IMG/VR virus record: IMGVR_UViG_3300048091_000425
DNA from: a virus
Direction: 5' to 3' (one strand)
DNA length: 64,000 nt
Positions 12,346 through 56,189 of the stretch are shown here, one piece after another. Numbering within the stretch: position 1 is the first letter of the stretch; the number at the start of each line of letters is the position of its first letter. The position numbers and the translations under genes were made by a program. A model generated the notes under the pieces. The model worked only from the letters and a program-made list of their open reading frames with translations, was not told where the DNA came from and did not search any database.

Positions 12346-12373
12346 ATATCTGAAGCAATTGGAGAAGCGCAGC

Positions 12374-13504
12374 ATGATTACTGCAGTTTACGCACTTTCC
12401 GGAGACCCTATTACTTTCGGTCATATTGACATCATCAACCGAGCCGCCGCTGGGTTTGATAATCTCATTGTTGGCCTTGGCGTAAACCCCAACAAAAAAT
12501 ACATGCTAACCCCTAATGAGCGGATAGCTGTTGCCAAACAATCGCTATCCCACCTCAATAATGTTGAGGTGATGTTCTTCGAAGGCCTGCTTGTGGATTT
12601 CGCATTTGAACAAGGTGCCACAATCATTGTTCGTGGCATCAGAAACGCCTCGGATGCAGTGGCCGAACAAGCCCTCGATCAGATCAATGGCTCTCAGATG
12701 AACATTGATACTTTTTTCATGTTTTCACGTTCCAAGCTTGCACATGTAAGTTCCAGCAACGTGAAAGCACTACAGGCCGAGAACGGACTCATTCATGAAT
12801 ATGTTCCGCTCCCAGTTAAGAAAATGCTCGAACGCAAGATCTCACACCAGCTTGTCTACGGGGTAACAGGCGTAATGGGATCTGGGAAATCATACGTTGC
12901 CGAGCAACTTGCTATCTATGCCGAGACACAACATGCGGTATCAGAAAGCAACCCGCTGGTTCACAACATTGAACTTGATAATCTGGCTCATCAAGTATAT
13001 GAATCAGATAAACCGGGCTACAAAGACATTCGTGAAAAAATCCAAAATCACTTTGGAACGCTAGACCGGTCAGAAATTGGGCAGATCGCCTTCGGCAGCG
13101 AGAACAGCAAGGAGCACGTTGACTTTTTAAACAACATTTTCAAAGACCCTGTCATGGTTCTGCTGCGTCAAGAACTACGTGGCAGGCAAGGCATCGTGCT
13201 GATTAATGCAGCCTTGCTTGTTGAGAGTGACCTGCTCAATCTCTGCAACAACCATGTAATTTTAGTCAACGCTGAAGACGCAGTGCGCCATGAGCGTCTG
13301 GTGAAATTCAGGAACATTGACCCAGTTGTTGCTGAAGAACGTATCAAACACATGAAAAGCAACAGCGCCAAGAGAGCGCAGATCAAGAGGTCTATTTCCA
13401 GCTCTCGCTTCGGTAATATTGTAGATTTTGACAATTCCTCAAGTAACCTTGAGATGATTGCCAATCTGTATGAACAGCTTAAAAATGAATACTTCGGAAA
13501 GTAG
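12374..13504 (+). CDS. coaD-coaE: Fused phosphopantetheine adenylyltransferase (CoaD) - dephospho-CoA kinase (CoaE)
   Basis: N-terminal DPITFGHIDII (HxGH), VRGIR, VSSS.VK; C-terminal GVTGVMGSGKS Walker A and INAALLVE. Confidence 0.9.
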   Translation: MITAVYALSGDPITFGHIDIINRAAAGFDNLIVGLGVNPNKKYMLTPNERIAVAKQSLSHLNNVEVMFFEGLLVDFAFEQGATIIVRGIRNASDAVAEQALDQINGSQMNIDTFFMFSRSKLAHVSSSNVKALQAENGLIHEYVPLPVKKMLERKISHQLVYGVTGVMGSGKSYVAEQLAIYAETQHAVSESNPLVHNIELDNLAHQVYESDKPGYKDIREKIQNHFGTLDRSEIGQIAFGSENSKEHVDFLNNIFKDPVMVLLRQELRGRQGIVLINAALLVESDLLNLCNNHVILVNAEDAVRHERLVKFRNIDPVVAEERIKHMKSNSAKRAQIKRSISSSRFGNIVDFDNSSSNLEMIANLYEQLKNEYFGK

Positions 13505-21569: not shown

Positions 21570-22352
21570 TTACTGGCGGATGGTTGGCTTGATCACCACG
21601 ATCTTGATTTCGTTGTCAGCATTGTCCGCATAGCTCTGGGTCACCGGATCCATCACCTGCTCACGCAGCCCTGAAACGACCACGGAGTTCCCTTTAAGGA
21701 CTGTCGATGCCGACACGCGCTTCATACCGTGTGCACCCGGCAGGATGCTTCGAGTGTCCGTATCAGGGCAGCCTGGTATCAAAATCTCCGGGGTGAACTT
21801 GATCTCGTAGGTCAACAGAATGTTGTCCTCGCTACGAATCAATGGATTCAGTGTGATGGCTTGGGTTGACGAGAACTTGCCGGGCGCCAGCTCGTCCTGG
21901 TGACACAACGGCAACTTCAGAAAAGCTCGAGAGGCGGTGTAGCCCAACTTCATATCCAGGCCGTTTACGGTCGTGGCATGGGTGGACTCGGTTACAACCT
22001 TTCCCTGATGCTCTAACGCTTTACGGAAGATCTCCGGGGTAACTTCCGCACTCAGGTGGACTTCCTGGCTCTGGGCGTAGCTGCTCTTGAAATTCCCGCG
22101 CATCAGGATTTGAGCACCCGATGCTTGCGCCAGGATGTCATTTTCCAGGCGCTGCCAGTCAACGTCCGGGGCCTTGGAGTCTTTCAGCGTCACGCTGTAG
22201 ATGTCAAAATCGATATCCACGTTGGCCTGTGGGATGGCTGACTCAGCCACTGGAGGCTTGGTAGTGGCCGGCGAATGGAGCATCTGACACCCTGCCGAAA
22301 CTGCCAGGGCCAGGACAGCCAGAGCACTTGCTGCGAACTTGATAGCCTTCAT
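21570..22352 (-). CDS. Lipoprotein, PilN-type secretin-domain-only protein
   Basis: Lipobox SAGC; DVDWQRL, ALEHQGKV, SVVVSGL, IVVIKPTI. Confidence 0.7.
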   Translation of the reverse strand: MKAIKFAASALAVLALAVSAGCQMLHSPATTKPPVAESAIPQANVDIDFDIYSVTLKDSKAPDVDWQRLENDILAQASGAQILMRGNFKSSYAQSQEVHLSAEVTPEIFRKALEHQGKVVTESTHATTVNGLDMKLGYTASRAFLKLPLCHQDELAPGKFSSTQAITLNPLIRSEDNILLTYEIKFTPEILIPGCPDTDTRSILPGAHGMKRVSASTVLKGNSVVVSGLREQVMDPVTQSYADNADNEIKIVVIKPTIRQ

Positions 22353-26132: not shown

Positions 26133-27056
26133 TCAGCCCTGGACTTTCAATCGCACGAACTCTTTGGAGGCATGCTTAACGGTGATTTCCAGGCGATTCT
26201 CGACCCTCACCGCCTCAGCCGAAACAATGGTCTTGGAGATGAAATTGCGAGCGATGTCGCGATCTGGCCGGCGATCCGTACGCACAACGCCGGATTTCTG
26301 ATCGGTTTCCAGCAGATCAAAAACCTGCATCGTCATATAACCATGATTTTCATAGCATTTTGGCGAGAGATTGTTTTCTTGAGCTTCCTGGATGTAGAAG
26401 GCAGGTAAAGCATCGAGGTATGCCATAAGCGCTTGCTGATCGACGTATTCGTTATCGATCAGAGTCAGATATGCGTCCAACGGCATGTGATCTTTAAACC
26501 ATGCCACTGATAGCACGCAGGCTCCAGCATCACGCATGGAGATTGCGCCAGCGATGAGTGGCTTGAGCATGACCATGGCTCGCGATTGCCAAAATTGCCC
26601 ATCGCCCTGGCCTTCCGCACGGAAAACCCAACCGGTGAAAAAGTCGGTTAGCTCATCGGCAGTGCACGTGCTCCAGCGTACATGCTGATGCGATTTTGCG
26701 AATTTGGCGAGTTTCAGCTGCTCAGCAGTCGAGTACCGAGGACGACTGAAAAAGCGGGTGACGTTGGGGATCAGGTAGTCCTCGCAGTAAGGCCTGATAT
26801 TCAGCCTGACCGACTGCTCGTTGTAACTGACCTCAAACTCGGAGGAATCAAGATCTTTCAAGTCAAACGTGAGAACGGTTGAGTCTGGGGATGAGGAAAC
26901 TTCGAACTGCGGCCAATCAGCCACATCCGCCGCCTTTTCGATGACTTTGGCGGACTCCTTAAGAATCGTTGAGATACCGCTTGCCGACTGCTTTAGCAGC
27001 GTAGAAGTGCCAACAGCCATCAGTTGAACAAACTCTTTTGCGAATGAATTACTCAT
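26133..27056 (-). CDS. DotL/IcmO/TrbC all-alpha-domain-like module within an HSP20-like fold, paralogue A
   Basis: GDGQFWQSRA..MRDAGA..L.AYLDALPAFY..ENHGYMTMQ matches the DotL GDMWKGRA..MRDEGA..YL.TLPGY..EQHGFITMQ pattern; no Walker A or TM. Confidence 0.6.
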   Translation of the reverse strand: MSNSFAKEFVQLMAVGTSTLLKQSASGISTILKESAKVIEKAADVADWPQFEVSSSPDSTVLTFDLKDLDSSEFEVSYNEQSVRLNIRPYCEDYLIPNVTRFFSRPRYSTAEQLKLAKFAKSHQHVRWSTCTADELTDFFTGWVFRAEGQGDGQFWQSRAMVMLKPLIAGAISMRDAGACVLSVAWFKDHMPLDAYLTLIDNEYVDQQALMAYLDALPAFYIQEAQENNLSPKCYENHGYMTMQVFDLLETDQKSGVVRTDRRPDRDIARNFISKTIVSAEAVRVENRLEITVKHASKEFVRLKVQG

Positions 27057-27093
27057 GAAGGTTTTTACCTTTCTTGTTGTTTTAGTGGAAGAT

Positions 27094-28047
27094 TTACCAG
27101 TGATATGGGATAGCTGAACTGAGCTCCAGTTTTACGAAGTCGTCTGGGGCCGGGTGTGTTAATTCAACGATTAACATCTTGCCGCGCAAATCAGCCTTGG
27201 CCGAAGAGATTGGCTTTCTCGATGGAAAACAGGCTGATGAACTGAAAATGCGCTCACGACGGTACTTGCCAACGCCAGGCGCGTGGTCACGCATAAGGCC
27301 GACCAGTTGCATCAGGACGTAGCCGTGAATCGAGTAGGCCTTTGGCTGTGACTCTGACGGACTTCCTCGCCTGTACCCCGGCAAAGCGTCCAGATACAGC
27401 TTGAATTCGTCAGCATTAAACGACGGTGGGCAGTCGCCCGTGCTGTATTGCTCATACACATCAAGGATCAGATGCTCGAAGAACATTTCAGTGGTGAGCC
27501 TCACGCGGTGCGTATCCCGAAGCCGAATCAATCCCTCGGCCACCGGGGTAACCAGCAGTTTCACTAGATCAGGGAAATTCTGGCTTACGGAAAGCTCCAA
27601 TTCTTCAAACCATCCCGAAATGAGCGCGATCAACTCTGAAGCTCTGCAGTCAGCCCAATGCAGCTCCAAGTTATTCTCCAGGTGGGTGCGCTCACGCACA
27701 GAGAGCTTCTTGTCGGTTTTTCCTAACTTGGCAGGGATCAAAAAACCATGGCAAACAGGATCAACCTCAATCCAGAGCTGCTTGCTGTTGTAGCTCATCC
27801 GCAACTCAGAAGGATCGATATCACCCACCTTGATGGAAAAAATGCTCTTTCCATCGAGATACTCGAACTGGTTTAGGTCGTTTCCCGCACCAGCAGTATC
27901 GACTAACAGATCAGGTAGATTTCTATCATTCATCCAGGGGATTCCGCGAATATTTCGGTGCACTATACCACGGAGATATTGCGAAAGAATTGCCACAGGG
28001 GTGACGGTCAAATACCCGTCAAATAGAAATTCTGGCTCAAAGGTCAA
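27094..28047 (-). CDS. DotL/TrbC all-alpha-domain-like module within an HSP20-like fold, paralogue B
   Basis: YLDALPGY..YSIHGYVLMQ; flanks IKVGDIDPSELRMSYN / AKADLRGKMLIVEL. Confidence 0.55.
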   Translation of the reverse strand: MTFEPEFLFDGYLTVTPVAILSQYLRGIVHRNIRGIPWMNDRNLPDLLVDTAGAGNDLNQFEYLDGKSIFSIKVGDIDPSELRMSYNSKQLWIEVDPVCHGFLIPAKLGKTDKKLSVRERTHLENNLELHWADCRASELIALISGWFEELELSVSQNFPDLVKLLVTPVAEGLIRLRDTHRVRLTTEMFFEHLILDVYEQYSTGDCPPSFNADEFKLYLDALPGYRRGSPSESQPKAYSIHGYVLMQLVGLMRDHAPGVGKYRRERIFSSSACFPSRKPISSAKADLRGKMLIVELTHPAPDDFVKLELSSAIPYHW

Positions 28048-31100: not shown

Positions 31101-32550
31101 CGTTGTAGCTGTCTGGCGGATAGTGCTTCGAGCACTGAGCGCACTTTACACCGATGATCGATGCAACCGACGGTAAAGGGACTGCATGACAACCACCATG
31201 GGGAGCGCACATGCCAGGCGTTTGGCAACGCATCATCGACGTCCTGCAGATCAGATCAGTCATGTCTGCTCTCCTCCGTCACCCTTCGCCCTTTCAGCGA
31301 TATAAGCCTCGCACCTGGTCACTTCGGCCAGCGCCAGCTCGATACCTGCCTTGTAGGCGGCGCGGGCGAGCATCCACTTGTCCTCGACCAGCACTTGCTG
31401 CCGCCCTGGTTCCAGCTCCAGAAACCAATCGTTCACATCGCGTTTCAACAGCTGCTCTACTATGATTTTGCAGGCCGTAATTGCATCTTCGGCGTTCACT
31501 GGCTTGCTCATTGACCTTGCTCCTGCAGGTAAGCTTGGATGTCATTGACCAGCTTGCTCAGGTTGAAACCTTGATCAGTTCTGGCCGATTTGTCGAACTC
31601 CACTACTCGGGCCAGCAATTGGTTCGCCCTGTCCCCTTGTGGCACGCAACCGCAACGCGCTGGGTGCGCCTGAGGCTGGTCACAGGCCTTGCTCACCCCC
31701 TGCTCTGCTTTGTCAGCAACCGGCACTTCGCTGGAGGTCACCGAGGGCGAGGTACCGGACTGTGGCAGCCTGCCAACCTGAAACACATCCCAGTCATCAA
31801 ACTTGCTCAGCTCTTTGGCGATGGCTTCAGTGACGATGATCGGCTCGCCGCCACTCTTGGCGCAATGGGCAATCCAGCCCCAGGGCTCTTGAGCCGGCGC
31901 TGATTCCAGCAGCAATTTTTTGAGCTTAGAAACCACGGCAGCCTCAGTCATCTGACCAGTGGAGGCTCGGGTGATCAATTTCCAAAGTTCCGAGGTCGTT
32001 GATTCTGCGGTCTGGTTATTGCTCATGATTGTCACCCTGGTCGGCGCTCGGATTAAGGTAATCCGCAATTTCATCTTGCAGCTGCTCGAAGAGATTGCGA
32101 AAGCCACTGTCAGCATGAACCGCATCCAGAAGCCTTCTGGCATCCGTAAGCTGCGCTTGTAATGACGCCAAGACCGGATTTGAGGATGGGTCTGAAGCCC
32201 TCTCCCCCTTTCCGATTTCTGCCTCATGCTCATCGATGTAGAGACTGATGCCCTCTGGGCTCATTGTTCTGCTCCTTTTCCTTTCCTGGATTGCCGTTCC
32301 GTTATCTTGCACTCGGGGTCACAGCGACCTGGACATCGAGAACGTGCTTCAGCCTGTGTTCAAGCGCTTCGATGTCTTTGATTTTTCTGTTTCGATAGTC
32401 AATCTGAGGGCAGCCACGACGTGCAATCTCACCATCCTCATCGTCATCCTTGAATCGCTGGATGACCACCCGGTGGTAAAGCTTCGCCTCGACGAGTGAC
32501 TCCAGAATGAGCTTAATGTCCTGACAGGCAACCAAAAGCTTATCGCTCAA
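28115..32550 (-). other. Run of small phage-like hypothetical genes (28115-28390, 28387-28641, 28675-28989, 29044-29265, membrane 29313-29984, 29992-30255, Cys-rich 30382-31263, 31260-31511, 31508-32026, 32016-32312, 32302-32550)
   Basis: Overlapping start/stop coupling; promoter TTGACA-17-TAATGT at 30291-30319. Confidence 0.55.
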
Positions 32551-33328
32551 GGCCAGTCACCGAATCGTCTGGGTCAGTTGGTCGTGGGTTCAGGCCAGGC
32601 GGCTGCAGATTCCCCTGCCACACACCGTCCAGTCCAGCGTGTTCGGTTTCCTGAATCATCTTGAGATAGGCCTGGCGCTCCACTTCCTTTTGCTGTTTTG
32701 CCGCCCACAGCGTACTTGCCAGCGCCGGTACCGCTTCCTCCACGGTCTTGCTGTGGCCGGCCCAGGTGCAGGCGAGCATCAGGTTCATCGGCAGACCGAA
32801 GTCCTCGACCATGAAACCTTCGGCGTCATAGCCCCCGGCATCATGCGGCACCAGCTTCCTGAGCGTCTCAGGGCCGTCAAAATAGACCCACACCGGTTTA
32901 CCCAGGGCGATGGCCATGCCAACCTCGAAAACCGTCCCAGAATCAGGCTCAAGGCCTCGGAAGCAGTTCAGGTTGGCCAGGACGGCATCGGCCCGGCGAA
33001 TCATGTCCATGTTCATCTGACTGATCATGGCGGCCATCTGCGCCGGGGGCAGGCTCTGATCGACCTCATTGTCGAATGGATACAGGCCAACCATAGCCTT
33101 TTCGCTGCACAGGTCTTTCAGGTAGGCACCACGTTCCAGGCCATCCTGGCGAAACACATCAAAGCCAGCCAGGTAGACTTGTGGCCACCCGAACCCTTCG
33201 ATGAACTCTTCGATGGAAGGCCCTGCGCTGCCGCACTCATGCAACTGCTGGATAACTTCCTCTGGGGTCAGCTCACTGAGACGCTGCCTGATCGTTTCGA
33301 GCATTTGTTTGGTTTTTTCAGTAGCCAT
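32540..33328 (-). CDS. Nucleoside 2-deoxyribosyltransferase-family protein with N- and C-terminal extensions
   Basis: VYLAGFDVF, IRRADAVLANL..FRG.EPDSGTVFEVGMAIALGKPV. Confidence 0.85.
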   Translation of the reverse strand: MATEKTKQMLETIRQRLSELTPEEVIQQLHECGSAGPSIEEFIEGFGWPQVYLAGFDVFRQDGLERGAYLKDLCSEKAMVGLYPFDNEVDQSLPPAQMAAMISQMNMDMIRRADAVLANLNCFRGLEPDSGTVFEVGMAIALGKPVWVYFDGPETLRKLVPHDAGGYDAEGFMVEDFGLPMNLMLACTWAGHSKTVEEAVPALASTLWAAKQQKEVERQAYLKMIQETEHAGLDGVWQGNLQPPGLNPRPTDPDDSVTGLER

Positions 33329-33333
33329 TTCTT

Positions 33334-35154
33334 TCAGTCTGCCAGTGATTTTGTGATTTTGTGGTTCATGGTATTGAACAGAATCAGGGCGCTGAACATG
33401 ACGCTCGGCGATTTACCCTTTGTCCTGAATTCCCAGCGCTTGTTGATGTTGAACGGAGCGTCACCGTTGACTTCATGAGAGGTCATCCAGCCAAGATCCC
33501 GCTTCCAGAGCTTGAGGTAGTCAGGCAGATAGTTGACCGACTTCATCCCCAGGAGCTGGCTCAGCTCCTCAGCATTTCGAGGGGAAATCCTGGCCACGGC
33601 GTTGATTGGGCTTTTTCCATCAAACACGCACAGCGGGCTAAAACCTTGGCGCTTGGGGTTTTGGGCGTAGAGACTCTTAATGGCCTGGCCGGTTTGTGCC
33701 TTATCGTACGTTGAAAACACCTGGGTGGATTCATGGTCGATGGCCTTTTCCATGTTCTTCTGGATGCGCTTAAAGAACCAGTCTTTATCACGCGCCCACA
33801 GCAGCTCGAATTTCTCATTGCCCCACTTAAACAGGTATTCGGAAAGGTTGCGGGCGAAGATGGTCTTGATCGCGTCATCGATCTCTTCTTCGGTGCCGGC
33901 GATCCCCTGGGAAACAGCGATGAAGTAATAGCGTTCTTTCTTTATTTTTTGCTGCTGGTGGTAGTCGTATTCCTTGTCGTGCTGGTCGGGATAGCGAATG
34001 TAGGTGCGGGTTTGCGCACAAAAGCCGAGCTTGGTCTCCCCCATCGGCAGAAAGGTGTCCGCTGTCATCCCGACCAGCGCCTCAGCAAAGAAGCCAGCCA
34101 TCCACGGATCGTCGAAGCCCAGTAGCGCCAGCATCGAGGCCAGGCTTGGCTTATGCAGTGTCCAGTTCGGACGGAACAGCACCGGCAGTTTGGCAACCTG
34201 ATCAGAATCAGCCGTGGCCAGTTTCACTGTCTCGGAGAGGCGAATCAGGCCTGGCTCAACCTCAGCCATTTTCTGGCCAGCCAGCTCAATGACCATCGCC
34301 ACCCAGATGAGAACGTCGCGATCCAGGTCAGAGATCTCAACAACCCCTGTATCGCCAATGTCGATGTAACGATCTTCTTTGAAAGTCAGATTTCGCCATT
34401 GCGGGTAGCGTTCGTAGGGCGATTGCAGATCCAGCTTATCGCGCATATGGCGCTCGCTGTCGCCGTTTTGCTGCATTTTGCCACTGTAACTGTCGATGGA
34501 GATCGCAGACAGATAGGCGATACGACCAGGCTTCTTGATCCCGATGGCAGTCTTGCTCTTACCTATTTTCGCCAGATAGGCGCCGAACGGCAGGCTGGTC
34601 TTGAGCGCATCAACGAAATCAGCCACCGTCGCGCATTCCACGATCTTGTCGTGCAGGCCAACCGGCTCGTTACTGCCGACCTCATCAAAGCGCACCCAGC
34701 GAATGGTCAGGCCCCGATCCATGCTGTAAATGGCGTCGCGCAGGCAGCAGGCGATCTCACGGGTGGTCGGGCGTCCAAAGTCAGCCGATACCCTGCCGAT
34801 CAAACGCTCGATCCGATCCTGGAACTGTACGGTCGGCGCCAGCACCATGTCATTCAGATCAGCCTTGATCCGCAGAATTTCCCAAAGCTCGTCGAGAAAA
34901 CCCTCTTTACGCAGGACATTGCTCAGTTTGACCTGTGCGCCGTCGATGGTGGCTTCCAACATCTCTTTCAGCAGCATGCCCATGGCCAGGCCGGTTGGAT
35001 CAGCACGTTTAAGCATCGGGAAGGTGTTTCGAACCACATCACGGGTGCTGTAGTTGAAGTGGTCGCGGTCATCGAACAGCACGAGGCTCTTACCATCGCC
35101 ACGATAGGCATCAAGTCGTTCGGAAATGCTGTCCAGCCTGGCGTAGTCAATCAT
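33334..35154 (-). CDS. Large hypothetical protein (606 aa)
   Basis: Long ORF coupled to the NDT gene; no recognisable motif. Confidence 0.75.
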   Translation of the reverse strand: MIDYARLDSISERLDAYRGDGKSLVLFDDRDHFNYSTRDVVRNTFPMLKRADPTGLAMGMLLKEMLEATIDGAQVKLSNVLRKEGFLDELWEILRIKADLNDMVLAPTVQFQDRIERLIGRVSADFGRPTTREIACCLRDAIYSMDRGLTIRWVRFDEVGSNEPVGLHDKIVECATVADFVDALKTSLPFGAYLAKIGKSKTAIGIKKPGRIAYLSAISIDSYSGKMQQNGDSERHMRDKLDLQSPYERYPQWRNLTFKEDRYIDIGDTGVVEISDLDRDVLIWVAMVIELAGQKMAEVEPGLIRLSETVKLATADSDQVAKLPVLFRPNWTLHKPSLASMLALLGFDDPWMAGFFAEALVGMTADTFLPMGETKLGFCAQTRTYIRYPDQHDKEYDYHQQQKIKKERYYFIAVSQGIAGTEEEIDDAIKTIFARNLSEYLFKWGNEKFELLWARDKDWFFKRIQKNMEKAIDHESTQVFSTYDKAQTGQAIKSLYAQNPKRQGFSPLCVFDGKSPINAVARISPRNAEELSQLLGMKSVNYLPDYLKLWKRDLGWMTSHEVNGDAPFNINKRWEFRTKGKSPSVMFSALILFNTMNHKITKSLAD

Positions 35155-35182: not shown

Positions 35183-36235
35183 TTAAAGCGACGGGGTGGC
35201 CGGCGCAGATTCTGGCACAGTCTGGATCAGGGACAACATATCGTTCAGCACAGAGTTGGCGAATTCAGGGCCGGCAGCCTTGGCATCAGCCATGGTCTTT
35301 AACTGATCGCTTTCGTAATTCAGGTAGTTCAGCTTGTAACCACCCTTGTCGTCGGTGATCGCCATCATCCTGTGGCCGGCGAACAGTGCCGTTTGCAGAA
35401 GGTTGTCGCCATTCCACTTTTGCTTGGGGGCGTCTTTAAATAATTTGCCGCCACCGTCTAATTGGATTTTCATGCTTTTCGTTCTCTGAAATTTAGTTGT
35501 GTCGCAATTTGTGGGGAGTGAGCTCGACATCCACCGGTCGTTTGGTGGTCAGCCCAGCCTTTTTCATTTCGTACTGAATCGTCCGGCGCTGGTTGCGCAG
35601 GTGATGCAATTTCTTTTCCAGAGCCACCTGTTCCAGGAACAGGTCATCGTCGGATTCGCGCAAGGCCATCTGCGCTTCAGTCATGACGGGCGCTTTGGCA
35701 TTCTTGCGGTTGATCTTGCTGCACAGGGGTTCACGCAACTCGGATTCCTTGTGCGTCTTGGCGCAGGCCGGGCAGATGTACGTGACGCTCGGCTCGTGAC
35801 GAAACCTGGTTGGCTTTTCGCAGAACTCGCAACGCTCCGACATCTTGTCGACGCCAAAGGCCTCGGCCAGCTCCATGTCCAAGTCGTCATCGTGCTTGAG
35901 CGGGATCACTCTTCACCTTCCTTTAGCTTTTTGGCCCGAACAAACGTCCAGCCTGGATTGCTCTCTACAGCGTGTTCAATCCCTTCCTGGCGATTGCGGC
36001 AGGTGACCGTCACCGCGAGGTTGTGGATGTTCCACTGATTGGTCAAGGTAATCCGGTAGCGCAGCATCGCCACTGGCCCAATGGCAGCCGCTGGGCAGTC
36101 AAAGGTGTCAGCGCCTTGCTCATGCTTGATGCGCCCGCTGCCATCGCGCTTGAGTTGCACGGTGAAATTGTCACCGTACTCAGCCGCGAGTGTGTCGAGC
36201 CATTGCGTTACCGCCTGGGGTATATCAGAAGTCAT
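35183..36235 (-). other. Three hypothetical genes (35183-35473, Zn-finger 35493-35909, 35906-36235)
   Basis: CEFC/CPAC motif in the middle ORF; coupled. Confidence 0.55.
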
Positions 36236-36551
36236 TGCTCACCTTCTTGTCTGAGGTGCGGACGATTTTAGGGAGAACGGCGATCCGGGCTTCCAGGTGA
36301 TCCGCAAGAAACGGCAGGGGCATTTCCTCACTGAACAGGCGAATCCTGAGCAGAGTGGCCAGTTCGAAGGCGACCCCAATTTCACACTTTGGGTCACCCT
36401 TCTCGATCCGGTGCAGCAGGCTGCGGGAAATCCCGGCGCGTTCGGCCAGTGCCTGGGCAGTCATCTGGGCTTCTTTTCGGGCCAGGGCAATCAATTGCCC
36501 CATGACCTTAAGAGCGTCCTGCGTCTGCGGTGAGTAGGTGCGAGTAGCCAT
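36225..36551 (-). CDS. XRE/HipB-like HTH regulator with no adjacent HipA
   Basis: IALARKEAQMTAQALAERAGISRSLLHRIEKGDP...IGVAFELA; promoter TTGCCG-17-TATATT at 36584-36612. Confidence 0.8.
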   Translation of the reverse strand: MATRTYSPQTQDALKVMGQLIALARKEAQMTAQALAERAGISRSLLHRIEKGDPKCEIGVAFELATLLRIRLFSEEMPLPFLADHLEARIAVLPKIVRTSDKKVSNDF

Positions 36552-36684
36552 GGGTTGACGCCATCGTTTGATTCAATGATGTCAATATACGCTATTAATT
36601 TGATAACGGCAAGTTCAATGTGTCATATACGCTACCAGTTGATATAACCGGTAGCGCACATGGAGCATATTGGTTGAATGACAG

Positions 36685-37098
36685 TTACAGTTCGGGAGTA
36701 TCGCTGGCGTTGGTCATTCGACGAGGTACGAGCGGTGCTGGATTAGCAGCCAATTGGAACTCTTGCACCGGCATCAGGTATTCATCAAGCACTCTGACGA
36801 TCTGGGTGGCCGGCACCGGCTCCAGGATCGCGATTTCATACGCATATCCGAGGTCACGCCGGAAGCGCGAACCGGTGTAGGCGAATTCGAGAATGAATAG
36901 CTCACCATTATAGTCTTCGAAGGCTTCACCCAGCCAATTGCTCAACCCGTCTTCCAACGACTCCCGGTCGACAAAGGCAAACACCGCAGGTGTAGGCTCA
37001 TTGGCCTCGGCACTGCGCACGCCGATACGGGGTTCCAGGCCATTGGCAAGGATTGCCTCCATTCCTGGTTTGGTTGTTACATGAAAAAACGTGCTCAT
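36685..37098 (-). CDS. Putative ADP-ribosyltransferase-fold protein (DarT/Tpt1-like motifs)
   Basis: FFHVT....EAILANGLEP, VFAF, YE.AILEPVP..QI; ATGA-coupled to 37095-37352. Confidence 0.5.
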   Translation of the reverse strand: MSTFFHVTTKPGMEAILANGLEPRIGVRSAEANEPTPAVFAFVDRESLEDGLSNWLGEAFEDYNGELFILEFAYTGSRFRRDLGYAYEIAILEPVPATQIVRVLDEYLMPVQEFQLAANPAPLVPRRMTNASDTPEL

Positions 37099-49778: not shown

Positions 49779-50486
49779 ATGATCAAGTCCACTTTTTTCA
49801 CCCTTATTACAGCGGCCCTGGCCTTTTTCCCAGTCGATGGTTCTGCGTTGCCAATGCGCCCGGATGCCAGCAAATTAAACCAATCGCACGTGCGATGCGG
49901 CGTGATGGGTAAATACGACGTCAGCGTCCCTTTCACCATTCGCAGCGTCACGACCGAAATGGAAACGCTCAACCCGGCTGAGGTTTGCGACTCCAGGCTG
50001 AAAAAGCTCGAAATGAAGTTGCAGGTCAATAGCCTCCAGACCGTCAGCGCCGACAGCTGGGTCAGAACACCCGTGGCCGATTACAGCCTGATAATTGAGC
50101 CGTCTGACCAAGCCCCTACCGTCAAAACAGGGGCCCTGATCAAAAAACTGTACAGCCGGGAAAGTTATGAGAGCGGCAATGGCTTCCCTTCTCAGGCCCC
50201 TGAGCGAGTCAAAGGGCTGGTGTTCATCAAGGGATCAAAGTTCGAGGGTGCGGAATTTCGCGATGATTTTTACTTGAAAAGCGATAGCCGTGGAAACCTC
50301 GAGTACATGATCCACTGCCTGATCGGCGCCAACGAGGCGGGCCAATGCAAGATGGCTTTCTCCCCCAGCGATATCGACTTGAACATGGTGGTCACCATCG
50401 CATCCTCAGACATCGACAACTACCGGGGCATTGCGAACGCGGCCAAGACCGTCGTCCGCACCCTGATCAAGAAACAAGACACTTAA
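49779..50486 (+). CDS. Secreted/periplasmic hypothetical protein
   Basis: Signal peptide; four Cys; convergent with the pilV cluster. Confidence 0.65.
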   Translation: MIKSTFFTLITAALAFFPVDGSALPMRPDASKLNQSHVRCGVMGKYDVSVPFTIRSVTTEMETLNPAEVCDSRLKKLEMKLQVNSLQTVSADSWVRTPVADYSLIIEPSDQAPTVKTGALIKKLYSRESYESGNGFPSQAPERVKGLVFIKGSKFEGAEFRDDFYLKSDSRGNLEYMIHCLIGANEAGQCKMAFSPSDIDLNMVVTIASSDIDNYRGIANAAKTVVRTLIKKQDT

Positions 50487-52402
50487 TACATGACGTCGAT
50501 GTAAACGACACCGCTCCGGCCAGCTGCCGTTTGGATAAGAAGGCCAACCGTGTCGTAGGTGACGTACCACTGACCCACTTCGGTATTGCCGCCAGAGCCA
50601 TAGCCGAAGGGTGACTTCCCGCCTTGGATGGTTCCAAATCCTTGGCCATAGCGTTGAGACCCGCTATTTCCTTGTCCGTAATAGACCGGGCCTCCTCCGG
50701 CACCAGGAATGAAGTTTGCAGGAGCTGGGCCACACGTACCAGCACTAGCGTAAGTGGCGTATGGCCCATCTGCAGCAGGTGAAACAGTTGGCCATTTAGG
50801 CTTGCCAGAACCCGTAATGATCATCGTAACGCCACCTGGCCCAACCCCATTGTAGCCGTCGATTCCGCCCATTGCGGCGCCACTGCCGCCCGCACACTCC
50901 AGCAGCGTTCCATTGGTCGCCGAGACGACCTTGCTGGAAGTCCCGTTAAAACCCACCGTCCCATCTTCACCACCTGGTGGAGGGTTGTAGTAGGTGTAGG
51001 GCAACCCAGGGGCTGCTACCCAAGCCGGGTTTGTAACAGGGTTAACACCTTTACCACCCACACCTACTTCAATGGTCAGGGTTTCTCCGGGAACCAATGT
51101 GACCGGGTGGTTGTAGACATAACCGCCGCTATGGCCACCAGATTGCATACTCCAACTACGCCATCCGAGCCCCGACGAACCTCCGCCAGCCATGCTGATC
51201 TGAGCACCGGTGACGCCCTGAGGAACGACCCAGGTGCCATTACTGGTATAGGTAAAACGATACATTTTCGGCGGGTCAGAGATCCCTTTCCACTTCCCTT
51301 CCTGGCACGACACCATTTCATATTTGGCGTTCACGCCCATCGCACCGTTGGCGGTACATGGGGTGCCGTCCGATTTGATTCCTTGAAAGAGTACTGGAGT
51401 TGCAGAGGTAATCTTGCCGCTCACATTCAACCGATTGAGGCGGCTGGACGCACTTGGGTTGAGCGTATAAGCCGCGTTGTCCGCGTCAATCAATTGCGAA
51501 CCGATGGCCTTGCCGGTTTTTACCGAGATGTCCCCGTGATTTACCTGAAGTGCTGTTTGCGCCGAGGTAAGACCGGCGTTAGAGCGAATTCCATTCTGAA
51601 CATACAGTCGCCCCATCTGCTCAACGTCCGCACTCACAATCACCCCAGCGCCAACCGCAGGTACCAAGGTGGCTGTTTTGGCGGAGCTATTACCAATGAC
51701 CAGGGGTTGACCGACCAGGTTCTGAATTCGGCTGACCCCGGTAATCATCCGGGAGGCTAACGTGGGGCCGCTCATCACTAATGGCACATGCAAGCTGCTC
51801 TTGCCATCAGTCCGGATCCAAGCGTCATCCGAAGGATTGGTTCTGGCAACGATGTTTATCGCACCCGTTTTTGGATCAGAGTTGACTGACAAGTGGGTGC
51901 TGGAGAACTGAGGTTGGTTAGCCAACCTGTTGCCTGCTGCCACCACAAGCGCGGCCACCCCAGACAGATCCGAGCGGGCCGCTGCCCCACCAACCGTCAT
52001 CACTTGGTACGGTGACACCTGCAAGGTCGCTGTGGTGAACTCTTTAGGTGCGATGCCGGCGACCGTTATCGATGTTTTGATACTGACCATGCCACCTGGA
52101 ATTGGAACTGCCGTCGTCGCCGCTGGAAAACTGCAGGGCAAATACTCAATCGCTGAAAGGCCGCCGCAGGATGCTGGTTTTAGCCAATTCGAACCAAACT
52201 GGTCGACTGGCTGGGATGGGTTGGCAGCGATCCACTTACGCAAGGCGTTGGTGTATTCGAGTAGCACGTGCCCTGTTTGACGAGCCTGATCAATCTGGAG
52301 ATCGCTGGTTTTGCTCGAAAAATTGAGCATGAGGGCGAACATCGTCAGGCTGACTGCCAGAATCAATTCAAGTAGGGTAAAGCCGCGTTGATTACGTTTC
52401 AT
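50483..52402 (-). CDS. pilV: PilV-like type IVb pilus tip adhesin, paralogue 3
   Basis: G/FTLLE prepilin cleavage motif; W.KP..CGG..YLPC; C..NG..C..GKW linker; Gly-rich C-terminus. Confidence 0.75.
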   Translation of the reverse strand: MKRNQRGFTLLELILAVSLTMFALMLNFSSKTSDLQIDQARQTGHVLLEYTNALRKWIAANPSQPVDQFGSNWLKPASCGGLSAIEYLPCSFPAATTAVPIPGGMVSIKTSITVAGIAPKEFTTATLQVSPYQVMTVGGAAARSDLSGVAALVVAAGNRLANQPQFSSTHLSVNSDPKTGAINIVARTNPSDDAWIRTDGKSSLHVPLVMSGPTLASRMITGVSRIQNLVGQPLVIGNSSAKTATLVPAVGAGVIVSADVEQMGRLYVQNGIRSNAGLTSAQTALQVNHGDISVKTGKAIGSQLIDADNAAYTLNPSASSRLNRLNVSGKITSATPVLFQGIKSDGTPCTANGAMGVNAKYEMVSCQEGKWKGISDPPKMYRFTYTSNGTWVVPQGVTGAQISMAGGGSSGLGWRSWSMQSGGHSGGYVYNHPVTLVPGETLTIEVGVGGKGVNPVTNPAWVAAPGLPYTYYNPPPGGEDGTVGFNGTSSKVVSATNGTLLECAGGSGAAMGGIDGYNGVGPGGVTMIITGSGKPKWPTVSPAADGPYATYASAGTCGPAPANFIPGAGGGPVYYGQGNSGSQRYGQGFGTIQGGKSPFGYGSGGNTEVGQWYVTYDTVGLLIQTAAGRSGVVYIDVMY

Positions 52403-52414
52403 GGCCGCTTCCCA

Positions 52415-54298
52415 TTAATACAGCACGTCGATATAAACAATGCCGGGTTTTCCTTTATTGACGTAAACGCAGCTACCGATGAAGTCATGCGTCACGTAAC
52501 ACCCACTAGCGCCGATATCACCGCCCGAGCCATAAGCCAAGGGGGACAACCCTCCCAACTTGATTCCCGAAGAAACCTCATAGATGGCCGTTCCAGAATT
52601 TCCCCGTCCATAGTCAGCCGGGCCACAGGCACCCGGCCCGTTTTCTTTCGCGTAACTCCCGGTTGCCATCCGCGATGGCGTTGCATAAACGCCTGGCGCA
52701 TAGTCTTTCAGCACCGGTTCTATTGGATTGCCAATGGAGGCGGTAGGCGTCACCGCAGAGCCTAACATCGAGTTATAACCATTCATCGACACACCACTGC
52801 CGCCAGAACATTCAATTAATAGACCTCTGGTGAGGGAGGTAACAATTGACGAGCCGCCTGGGTAGCCAGACAAACCATCGGTCGTCGTGCTATCAGGGTT
52901 GTAGTAGATATAATAGGGAGGGCCAGGATCAGCGAGAATACCGGTTCTAATTGGCCCAGAGCCCCTCCCACCAGCCCCCACAGTGATTTGCAAAACCTCA
53001 CCAGGCTCTAAATTCATCGGATGGTTCATCACAAACCCACCCGAGTGCCCTGTCGCCGTGTAGTTGCTGGATCGCCAACCCACCCCAGAGCTACCGCCGC
53101 CAGCTATCGAGATGTAGGCGCTTGTTACCCCTTCAGGGACTGTCCAGGTACCATCGGCGGTGAAGGTAAAGCGGTAAACCTTCGGCGACTTCGTGACCCG
53201 CTCCCAATCGGCTCCACGACAAGTCATGATCCGTCCGGTAGCGTCGGAAGAGATGGCGCCAGGTGTCTGGCAGGTGGTTTTCGATTGCTGACCGGGCATG
53301 AGTGAATCTTTGACGATGAGCTTGCTCACCACATCCGCCGATTTGGTTGAACTGGTCTTGTCCGGGTCAAACAACAGTGTTGAATTGTCAACACTCTGCA
53401 AGGCTTTCGCAGTGATCGATCCAGAGCCTTGATCCAGGTTACCAGTCAGGATATTGATCGACGCATCCGCTATGATTTGATCACGCGCTTGTAATTCGCC
53501 CAGGATCGTTGCATCCGAATCAATCACTACGCCACTGGTCAAGGATGAGCTCAAGCCACTTGCTGGGCCAAGATAGAGCAGTTCTCCAGCAAAACTTTCG
53601 AGGGCCGATGCTCCGACCACGTTTCGCAGCAATGGCGAGACGTTACCCATTTTCAATGAACCGCTCATCATGTTGCCGCCGTCGACGCGCAGCCATGGGT
53701 CGTTGGTGGCGACGTTACTGGCCTCCAGTGTGATCACCCCAGTCTTTGGATCAGCATTCACTTTACCGTCAGAGTTTAGGGCGTCCGCTTGGGTGGGTTT
53801 GCTGCTGGCAACAACGATAGCAATGACGCCGGCCAAGTCCGCCCGCGTCTTGGTGTCCAATTTGTAGGCTGTGACTGACGATGTAGCCCTTGTCTCAAAG
53901 GAGAAACCTTTGGGAACAGAGATAATCTGGGTTTGCACCGACAGTCCACCCCGAGAGAATGGCACCGCTGTACTTAAGGATGGGAAGTTACACGGAAGAT
54001 ACTCAATGCTCGAAAGCCCACCGCAGCTGGTGCTTTTCAACCAGTCAGTGCCGCTGTAGATCCCGTTCGCACCAAGGTTTTGGGACACATACGAGCGCAC
54101 GCCGTTGTTGTATTGAGCCAGGATGTTGCCAGCCAAACGCGCCTGATTTTGGTCATTCTCTGCTCGGTTGGCTTCCATTGTCAGCAAGGAGGCAATCGCC
54201 ACCAGTCCCATGGCTAACACCACTTCGAGCAAGGTGAATCCAGCCTGCTTGGGAGATGTATTGGGGCGGTGGCTTTTTCTCGAATTAATAGAAAACAT
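52415..54298 (-). CDS. pilV: PilV-like type IVb pilus tip adhesin, paralogue 2
   Basis: G/FTLLE motif; same architecture. Confidence 0.75.
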   Translation of the reverse strand: MFSINSRKSHRPNTSPKQAGFTLLEVVLAMGLVAIASLLTMEANRAENDQNQARLAGNILAQYNNGVRSYVSQNLGANGIYSGTDWLKSTSCGGLSSIEYLPCNFPSLSTAVPFSRGGLSVQTQIISVPKGFSFETRATSSVTAYKLDTKTRADLAGVIAIVVASSKPTQADALNSDGKVNADPKTGVITLEASNVATNDPWLRVDGGNMMSGSLKMGNVSPLLRNVVGASALESFAGELLYLGPASGLSSSLTSGVVIDSDATILGELQARDQIIADASINILTGNLDQGSGSITAKALQSVDNSTLLFDPDKTSSTKSADVVSKLIVKDSLMPGQQSKTTCQTPGAISSDATGRIMTCRGADWERVTKSPKVYRFTFTADGTWTVPEGVTSAYISIAGGGSSGVGWRSSNYTATGHSGGFVMNHPMNLEPGEVLQITVGAGGRGSGPIRTGILADPGPPYYIYYNPDSTTTDGLSGYPGGSSIVTSLTRGLLIECSGGSGVSMNGYNSMLGSAVTPTASIGNPIEPVLKDYAPGVYATPSRMATGSYAKENGPGACGPADYGRGNSGTAIYEVSSGIKLGGLSPLAYGSGGDIGASGCYVTHDFIGSCVYVNKGKPGIVYIDVLY

Positions 54299-56189
54299 CG
54301 ATCATCACCACTCCGTCAGAACCATTTTGAGGAAATCTGCACGATTCTTGCTTCGCGGCTGTGACAAAGCAGCGGGAAATAACCAAATCACCACCGGAGC
54401 CATAACCAAAAGGCGTGCGCCCTCCGCTGATCATGTCGCCGACAGAAGCAGAGTTATACATAGCTTCTACGCCAAGGCCGTAGTTACCAACTCCACACAC
54501 ACCGGGCCCCCAAACATCCCCAGCAGCGGAATGTGTGGTCTTTTGTGCCTGCCAGGTGTAAGTGGACGGCGCAAACGGAACCATGACGATGGAAGCGACT
54601 GAAGCTACTGGGTTCGTGTTATTTTCGCCATGAAGAGCAGCAGACGTGATCCCCGAACCTGAGCTTCCTGCCCCGCCAGAGCATTCAAGCAATAGCCCAT
54701 TGGTTGGGGACGTGACTCTCGTGGTACCGCCTGGAAGTCCGGTTAAACCAGAGTTAGCGGGGTTTCCCCAAAAAACGTAGAACGGGTATCCAGCGTTCGA
54801 GAGTATGCCGCTGTTTACAGGTGCGTAGGCTAATGCACCCTTACCTACGTTTATCTGAATTACTTCACCTGGCACCATAGGCACCTGATGGTTCATCACA
54901 AAGCCACCAGAGTGGCCGGAGCTACTGTGGGATTCGACACGCCAGCCCATGCCGGAACCACCCCCACCGGCAGCGGAGATGAAGCCGCTAGTGACGTGAT
55001 CTGGCACTGTCCAGCTACCACTGGATGTGAACACAAAACGGTGCAATACCGGCGACTTGCCGACTTTTAGCCATAAATTGCCCTGACACGACAACAGATT
55101 GTTCGCAGCATCTTTGGCGACTTCGCCATTCGTGGGACAACCCGCAAGCTCCACGACAACCGTGTTGATCTCCAGTACAGGGTCAGGACGAGACGCCACC
55201 GGCACGGAAAGATCTGGAGTGATGCTGGCCGCGCCGTCGAGCGTCAGGGTACTGAATTTGCTCTGGCCTCCAGGGTTTGCCATGTAGGCACCAGCAGCTG
55301 AGTTGTAGAGGCCCTGCTTTGTGATCAAATTGCCTAGCGGAATTTTCGTGTTACCCGAAGCGATAACCACCGAGTTGGCAGAATCAATGCCCCCGTCGGC
55401 CAGCAGACGGCCAAGCACCTCAGTGTCCGAGTCAACCACCACCGTGGCGCCAGCCGGGATCCCTAGGCCACTTGAAGAACCAAATATCAGAGGTTGGCCA
55501 GGGATAGGCTGGATGCGTGAGGCGCCAACGATGCGGCGATTCGCAGCCAATGAGCTGTCAAAGGACAGGTTGCCATCCATTGTGTTGCCGCCGTCGGCTC
55601 GCAGCCAGGCGTCACCAGATTCCGGCTTTCTGGTCGTCATGGCGATCACAGCGGTTTTTGCGTTGGCATTGATCGAGCCGAACATGGTGCGGTCGAATGC
55701 ATTACCACTCAAGGCAGCCATTGCCGCAACGCCGGCCAGATCTGCCCGAGGAAGGCCGGAGAGCAGGTAAGGCGAAAACGTGGTCTGCCCCATCGTTTCT
55801 GTTTTTTCAGCGTTGGTGACCGTCGAAATGATGGTTTTAACGGTCAGGCTTCCCGGCATCAGGGGCTCTGGATTGACCACATCGGTGATGTCTGCCGTGG
55901 GGAATTTGCAATCAAGATAGCCTGGCGCTGGCGCCAGGCCGCCGCAGGAGACAGGCTTCAACCATTTGGTACCGGAGTAACTGCCGGACGCTCCTGGGTG
56001 GTCAGCAATCCACTTCTGGACGGCTTTTCCATAATCACGCAACTGGCCACCCGTGCCTTTGGCGGCATTGATGTAGAAGTCTGCCGACTGGCTTTCCACG
56101 GTAAACACGGCGGCGATGGAAAGCAGGCTGACGACAAACACAACCTCTATGAGGGTGGCGCCCTTTTGCCTTGATTTGGAAGAATGCAC
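54285..56189 (-). CDS. pilV: PilV-like type IVb pilus tip adhesin, paralogue 1
   Basis: G/ATLIE motif; same architecture. Confidence 0.75.
   Translation of the reverse strand: MHSSKSRQKGATLIEVVFVVSLLSIAAVFTVESQSADFYINAAKGTGGQLRDYGKAVQKWIADHPGASGSYSGTKWLKPVSCGGLAPAPGYLDCKFPTADITDVVNPEPLMPGSLTVKTIISTVTNAEKTETMGQTTFSPYLLSGLPRADLAGVAAMAALSGNAFDRTMFGSINANAKTAVIAMTTRKPESGDAWLRADGGNTMDGNLSFDSSLAANRRIVGASRIQPIPGQPLIFGSSSGLGIPAGATVVVDSDTEVLGRLLADGGIDSANSVVIASGNTKIPLGNLITKQGLYNSAAGAYMANPGGQSKFSTLTLDGAASITPDLSVPVASRPDPVLEINTVVVELAGCPTNGEVAKDAANNLLSCQGNLWLKVGKSPVLHRFVFTSSGSWTVPDHVTSGFISAAGGGGSGMGWRVESHSSSGHSGGFVMNHQVPMVPGEVIQINVGKGALAYAPVNSGILSNAGYPFYVFWGNPANSGLTGLPGGTTRVTSPTNGLLLECSGGAGSSGSGITSAALHGENNTNPVASVASIVMVPFAPSTYTWQAQKTTHSAAGDVWGPGVCGVGNYGLGVEAMYNSASVGDMISGGRTPFGYGSGGDLVISRCFVTAAKQESCRFPQNGSDGVVMIDVFY

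Follow-up and report, generated by a model that had tools for sequence, protein, structure and literature searches.

The window analysed here, a 64,000-nucleotide stretch of DNA from IMG/VR virus record IMGVR_UViG_3300048091_000425, carries two adjacent minus-strand genes, A and B, each predicted to encode an HSP20/CS β-sandwich into which an all-alpha domain (AAD) of the DotL/TrbC-type type IV coupling proteins (T4CPs) is inserted. Gene A (26133..27056, 307 residues) is given as such in a program-made list of open reading frames (ORFs); the second ORF lies 37 bp from it and was listed as running from 27094 up to a TTG at 28047. Since the homologues of B are 278-282 residues long and begin with MNDRN or MNHQN, we place its start at the ATG at 27933; the TTG is probably too far upstream, and gene B is most likely 27094..27933, encoding 279 residues. 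The 13 close homologues of A have 280-338 residues. A and B are paralogues, with 27% identity over ~270 residues (E 2e-23). The 1,059,468-bp plasmid unnamed1 of Pseudomonas serbica IT-P366, the sole plasmid returned by the related-locus search, carries A in identical form. A scan of the A/B locus for promoters and terminators gave no signal beyond shuffled expectation.

The two ORFs had been singled out in a preceding reading of the DNA made from the sequence alone (the sequence-only reading). Both are present on the minus strand, with the start of B moved as described above, and the signatures quoted in that reading were recovered: YLDALP.[FY] at A 213-220 and B 180-187, HGY.[TL]MQ at A 238-244 and B 203-209, and, in A only as had been stated, GQFWQSRA (153-160) and MRDAGA (174-179). 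The strings that it had assigned to the flanks of a β-sandwich lie at residues 63-87 and 280-293 of A.

The AAD of coupling proteins engages substrates and is their membrane-distal domain. The inserted domain was delimited in A by structure match and profile to residues 93-262 (26271..26780, minus strand), with a core at ~128-250, and in B to residues 66-226 (27256..27738, minus strand), where the model places helices from 72 to 214. Positions 240-346 of the NCBIfam model TrbC_conju (NF041447) match A residues 150-250 (E 6e-7), the sole match of A to the Protein Data Bank (PDB) by phmmer is DotL residues 230-345 (E 2.5e-3), and a profile of 17 family sequences matches residues 219-360 of DotL (6sz9_A) with an E-value of 3e-13. 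The structures agree: the top VIA match of the AlphaFold2 (AF2) model of A is DotL 7ovb_A 210-364 (Z 11.2, root-mean-square deviation (rmsd) 2.1 over 117 residues), and the AF2 model of B matches DotL 7ovb_A 211-363 (Z 9.7, rmsd 3.0 over 118 residues). Furthermore, the replicon that bears A and B also encodes an 851-residue DotL/TrbC-like T4CP, directly downstream of a DotM_C protein, and residues 150-249 of A share 35% identity with the AAD of this T4CP (E 3e-13). By sequence profile and predicted fold, the AAD of A and B is therefore a homologue of the domain on which substrates dock in DotL/TrbC-type T4CPs, and this is what the sequence-only reading had proposed for both proteins.

On either side of the AAD, both models place the strands of a single sandwich, four before the insertion and three after it. 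In A, strands β2-β5 fall within residues 46-92 (26781..26921, minus strand; model strands 52-55, 59-65, 74-78 and 82-87) and β7-β9 within residues 263-300 (26157..26270, minus strand; 266-271, 277-285 and 288-295). In B, the corresponding segments are residues 21-60 (27754..27873, minus strand; 22-26, 29-35, 44-48 and 52-57) and 230-260 (27154..27246, minus strand; 232-237, 244-250 and 253-259). The models have a mean predicted local distance difference test (pLDDT) score of 75 for A and of 85.8 for B, the latter with a predicted template modelling score (pTM) of 0.79. Residues 1-45 of A (26922..27056, minus strand) are modelled as N-terminal helices of low confidence, with pLDDT < 50 for residues 1-46; the segment at ~25-45 is amphipathic (hydrophobic moment 1.6-1.9), and its motif is common to many family members in the alignment and is not found in B.

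With each model, VIA returned ~40 entries of small heat shock proteins (sHSPs) or CS domains at Z 7-11, which filled nearly all of the list after DotL. The sandwich of A is matched by the Sgt1 CS domain (Z 10.7, rmsd 1.9 over 81 of 92 residues) and that of B by HSP16.5 of M. jannaschii, mjHSP16.5 (Z 11.2, rmsd 1.4 over 72 residues); across both models, Z is 10-11 for the sandwich matches, and 72-81 residues superpose with an rmsd of 1.4-2.1. HSP20/CS clusters are likewise retrieved by the ESM Atlas model of A; the leads from the ESM Atlas feature search were all below 0.9. When the AAD columns were cut from the family alignment and the remainder was compared by hhalign with 26 bacterial HSP20s from Pseudomonadales genomes, 80 columns aligned in register from β2 to β9 with a probability of 90.9% and an E-value, for this single comparison, of 1.1e-6, and the gap left by the AAD fell exactly in the HSP20 β5-β7 loop. 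The Pfam HSP20 model does not match intact A or B, and Foldseek against the PDB gives nothing at E <= 1e-3, with sHSP and DotL rows reaching a probability of 0.97; we attribute both results to the splitting of the sandwich domain. In bacterial sHSPs, the β5-β7 loop bears β6, which is used for dimerisation. According to the models and the hhalign comparison, this loop is replaced by the AAD in A and B, and no C-terminal IXI motif is evident in the family alignment. The suggestion that the flanks are a split alpha-crystallin domain holds. Given these models and alignments, we consider it very likely that both proteins are seven-strand HSP20/CS sandwiches with a DotL/TrbC AAD in the β5-β7 loop.

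What the two proteins lack is the remainder of a coupling protein. The highest Kyte-Doolittle value in a 19-residue window is 1.47 in A and 1.11 in B, compared with 1.94 in the T4CP of the plasmid, and no stretch in A or B is hydrophobic enough for a transmembrane segment on this scale. Neither has a Walker A motif ([AG]xxxxGK[ST]), which is GSTGSGKT in the plasmid's T4CP. In BLAST searches the similarity of the sandwich-AAD proteins to T4CPs is confined to the AAD and does not extend to the ATPase domain or any other region, and the Pfam models T4SS-DNA_transf, TrwB_AAD_bind and TraG-D_C do not match A or B. The absence of membrane segments and Walker motifs had been noted in the sequence-only reading and is borne out by the hydropathy and motif scans. 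On sequence grounds, A and B are soluble cytoplasmic proteins without a membrane anchor or an ATPase.

An exhaustive search with the family profile at E <= 1e-3 returned 602 proteins. Full-length sandwich-AAD proteins, of 250-356 residues, form ~45 clusters at 50% identity, and the AAD is their most conserved portion. The next matches are T4CPs of ~700-1200 residues, aligned at the AAD alone. Among the top 150 matches, ~40 further clusters have an AAD without a sandwich and without similarity to the rest of a T4CP, although fragments of genes may be among the short ones. Several metagenomic proteins of this kind, P0132, P0136, P0137 and P0143 (250-276 residues) and P0063, P0089 and P0097 (430-490 residues), have two tandem DotL-type AADs without ATPase similarity; P0097 has pentapeptide repeats in addition. 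Two further AAD proteins were seen on the megaplasmids: a 264-residue protein at ~35994-36788 of G001:C1 (L028 1995-2789; E 6e-11) and a 257-residue protein at ~858002-858775 of G240:C2 (L029 2003-2776; E 3e-18), both matched by the profile in the AAD only and without sandwich flanks. Each megaplasmid therefore bears several free-standing AAD-like proteins.

The family has not, to judge from the resources consulted, been described. Pfam gives a sub-threshold DUF3284 match on A and none on B, NCBIfam covers the AAD segment of A only, PADLOC has no match for A, B or eight neighbours, RefSeq homologues are annotated "hypothetical protein", and in the literature searched we found neither stand-alone AADs nor a chimera of HSP20 and AAD described. 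The sequence-only reading, which did not recognise the architecture, was right in this respect: A and B belong to one undescribed, conserved family made from two known domains, and its novelty is the insertion of the AAD into the HSP20 sandwich.

In a tree of a 100-column AAD core, the AADs of the sandwich family form essentially one clade (support 0.87-0.91), with P0040 as an outlier and a few short or tandem-AAD sequences nested within it; the A clade and the B clade fall in one group (support 0.958). The sister of the family clade consists of 34 sequences, mostly T4CPs, including those of the megaplasmids themselves, and the grouping has a support of 0.79. Among T4CPs, the AAD of A and B is, on this tree, closest to the clade that holds the coupling proteins of the MPF_I megaplasmids. 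P0024, a pBASL58-type member, is 51% identical to a pMPPla107-type T4CP over the 100-column core. We then compared 40 non-redundant family AADs with 80 non-redundant T4CP AADs, using A numbering. Seventeen positions are conserved in both (W156, R159, A160, R175, D176, L182, L193, Y213, L214, L217, P218, G219, E236, H238, G239, M243 and Q244), and at most of them the residue is identical, polar ones included. Conversely, the T4CP-specific positions G151, M155, K157, G158, L171, Q237 and T246 are not kept in the family; among the positions that the family has not kept, M155, L171, R188 and Q237 are 80-100% conserved in T4CPs.

Relatives of A and B are found on P. silesiensis pPL1 (1.17 Mb), Pseudomonas sp. 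Leaf58 pBASL58 (0.90 Mb) and P. amygdali pv. lachrymans pMPPla107 (0.97 Mb), plasmids of the conjugative pMPPla107 megaplasmid family (PMC6482414). The complete plasmids with full-length members, the one that bears A and B included, are conjugative Pseudomonas megaplasmids of ~1 Mb. PLSDB typing assigns pBASL58 and pMPPla107, both with full-length members, to MPF_I; a megablast of the A/B locus against PLSDB gave no match. Copy number varies from one (pBASL58 and pMPPla107) through two (here) to three in tandem (L008 and L009), and pPL1 has a dispersed extra paralogue (NZ_CP143488.1 293332-294243), 46% identical to P0037, beside its tandem locus. Among 401 Pseudomonas species genomes, only two have full-length members, and both carry these megaplasmids; nine others have only T4CPs with weaker AAD matches. 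Outside this genus, the MPF_I megaplasmid of Methylorubrum extorquens AM1 has an unannotated partial match to P0039 residues 75-285 (NC_012811.1 447747-448322, L065; 25.6% identity, E 7e-11).

What would a soluble copy of this domain do? The AADs of VirD4 and PcfC bind their cognate DNA substrates, according to Whitaker 2015 as summarised in PMC8740702. Similarly, the XVIPCD signal of Xanthomonas effectors binds the AAD of VirD4 (PMC8740702) and CagZ binds that of Cagβ (PMC12624023, PMC9886983), while pKM101 TraJ without its AAD loses transfer and no longer subjects piliation to relaxosome-dependent control (PMC13463995). The contacts of DotM with the AAD in the DotL complex are confined to the surroundings of the base of the AAD, close to the ATPase domain (PMC7280309). 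This base, which in DotL abuts the ATPase domain and DotM, is taken up by the sandwich in A and B, and the exposed part would be only the membrane-distal, substrate-facing portion. Because the residues conserved in both groups are mostly identical, the free AAD probably still binds the partners of the T4CP AAD, which might be a component of the relaxosome or the signal of another substrate of the type IVB secretion system (T4BSS). A and B could thereby act as competitors that titrate the docking partner of their own, sibling or co-resident plasmids; alternatively, they could be adaptors and pass substrates on to the T4CP.

We propose, at a little short of even chances and from sequence, models and analogy, that A and B modulate the recruitment of substrates to the T4BSS conjugation machine of the megaplasmid. 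The sequence-only reading had likewise suggested adaptors or decoys for the T4BSS, which is reasonable in view of what the AADs of coupling proteins do. A and B share one trait of domain-copy decoys, in that each is a stand-alone copy of a conjugation-protein domain by profile, tree and identity, and a precedent for such decoys is CtiC of SGI1-like elements, which mimics the C-terminal domain of the relaxase and titrates MobI (PMC13635750). A role as competitor or decoy seems more likely than one as adaptor. It is a bolder suggestion, and one that we hold to be unlikely as it stands, that A and B represent a new class of conjugation modulators, mimics of the T4CP docking domain on an sHSP scaffold that would capture relaxosomes or transferred proteins and so inhibit the fertility of sibling or co-resident plasmids, exclude these plasmids, or throttle the costly transfer of the plasmid itself.

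Several points weigh against a role in substrate recruitment. The evidence for substrate binding by AADs comes from proteins of the VirD4, TraJ, PcfC and Cagβ type, and we know of no experimental evidence for the DotL/TrbC type. The residues shared with T4CPs could serve folding instead of ligand binding. The AADs of A and B are acidic (isoelectric points 5.3 and 6.1, and 4.4 for the plasmid's T4CP), and this argues against direct binding of DNA. The link with MPF_I is drawn from only a few megaplasmids, which are related, and A and B lie ~240 kb from the T4CP and DotM genes. Finally, their neighbours are conserved small uncharacterised ORFs on one strand, for which NCBIfam and Pfam returned nothing informative, or, in pBASL58 and pMPPla107, an MscS-family gene; the context therefore gives no functional tie to conjugation.

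This lack of conjugation genes in the neighbourhoods would be expected if the AAD had been exapted as a client- or ligand-binding lid on an sHSP-like scaffold, with a role outside conjugation such as chaperoning, regulation or some other conflict between elements. In at least 40 non-T4CP clusters the AAD sits in a different architecture, such as tandem AADs or, in one case, a fusion to pentapeptide repeats, from which we conclude that it is a mobile module, and the loss of the T4CP-specific positions listed above is also consistent with exaptation. However, the full-length members on complete replicons have so far been seen only on plasmids that also encode a DotL-type T4CP of the sister clade, and many of the conserved polar residues of T4CP AADs have been retained, so that we regard an exapted role as rather improbable. 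A positive accessory factor, in which the AAD would capture substrates (relaxase-DNA, primase-like or other transferred proteins) and the sandwich or the N-terminal amphipathic helix would deliver them to the T4CP, follows a logic that may be likened to that of IcmS, IcmW and LvgA on DotL. It draws on the same structural evidence as a competitor does, namely the profile match to DotL and both models. Moreover, HSP20/CS domains are typical protein-protein docking modules, with the Hsp90-binding CS domain of Sgt1 and the CS domain of PIH1D1 among the top fold matches, the amphipathic helix is conserved in many members, and one to three tandem paralogues would suit several substrate specificities. 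Yet a docking site on the T4CP is neither known nor predicted, the A and B genes are outside the type IV secretion system operons, and a free AAD has no obvious route by which to pass its ligand on to the identical domain of the motor; we think such a factor unlikely.

That A and B are non-functional remnants, decayed chimeras of a rearranged T4CP gene, has nothing in its favour except the unusual architecture. The reading frames are intact across ~45 clusters that range from 85% down to ~20% identity, motifs and insertion point are conserved among them, and the confident predicted folds and conserved tandem synteny also speak against decay. We consider this explanation extremely improbable, and the conservation pattern effectively refutes it.

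Other genes in the window and on related replicons deserve brief mention. At 32540-35154, minus strand, a 606-residue protein without a family or PDB sequence match is followed by a nucleoside 2-deoxyribosyltransferase, and both genes are kept in synteny, upstream of the sandwich-AAD genes, in L006, L008 and L009 and also in L013, a distant locus. At 50483-56189, minus strand, there are three tandem paralogues of 627-639 residues with prepilin-type N-methylation motifs, one of them with a glycine-rich C-terminal domain; they are perhaps variable adhesins at the tip of the type IV pilus of the MPF_I system. A 260-residue protein (21570-22352, minus strand) weakly resembles type IVB pilus secretins of the PilN family in their C-terminal part (TIGR02520, E 1.2e-5), and the gene at 12359-13504, plus strand, encodes a fused CTP_transf_like and CoaE (dephospho-CoA kinase) protein. 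Around the T4CP/DotM pair (L031, G001:C1:505000-524999) lie genes for FtsZ/tubulin, SecA, RecJ-like, ParM-like, guanylate kinase and dUTPase-domain proteins.

Soluble, well-folding proteins that display the DotL/TrbC AAD offer a handle with which to find the ligand of this domain. They bear on how very large plasmids control or contest conjugation, since A and B are candidates for an inhibitor or an adaptor that acts on type IVB conjugation in nature. Since pMPPla107 can be transferred in the laboratory and carries one copy of the gene (WP_005741749.1), the hypothesis is directly testable. Irrespective of function, A and B are a clean case of an insertion domain that has moved from one host fold into another, again as an insertion. 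If the bolder suggestion made above is true, then together with the other free-standing AAD architectures it would make the receptor domain of T4CPs a widely reused, portable recognition module.

A and B can be compared with several known systems. DotL/IcmO of the Legionella type IV coupling complex (PDB 6SZ9/7OVB, ~210-364) and the IncI-type TrbC (NF041447) have a homologous AAD by profile and fold, with the motifs W..RA, RD, LD, YL..LPG and HG(Y/F)..MQ in common. In contrast, the host fold of the AAD is a RecA-like ATPase in DotL/TrbC and a β-sandwich in A and B, which are without the transmembrane anchor, the Walker motifs, the C-terminal tail and T4CP-specific residues such as Q237. The sHSP/alpha-crystallin (PF00011) and CS/p23 domains have the same seven-strand sandwich and strand order as A and B, and the motifs DxxxxE(L/F)xV and AxxxxxxLxI are shared between the HSP20 profile and the flanks of the AAD; the difference from HSP20 is that the β5-β7 loop is swapped for a helical domain of ~170 residues and that no IXI motif is evident. 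PifC, Osa and FipA are plasmid-encoded cytoplasmic fertility-inhibition factors that strike at the engagement of T4CP and substrate in rivals (PMC5696584), but they are unrelated to A and B in sequence and fold and none is built from a domain of a T4CP. Like A and B, CtiC is a lone copy of one conjugation-protein domain, and its action as a decoy has been demonstrated (PMC13635750). CtiC, however, is the bare 84-residue C-terminal winged helix of a relaxase and not the AAD of a T4CP, whereas for A and B, in which the copied domain would be displayed on an HSP20/CS sandwich, the role of decoy is one that we hypothesise by analogy.

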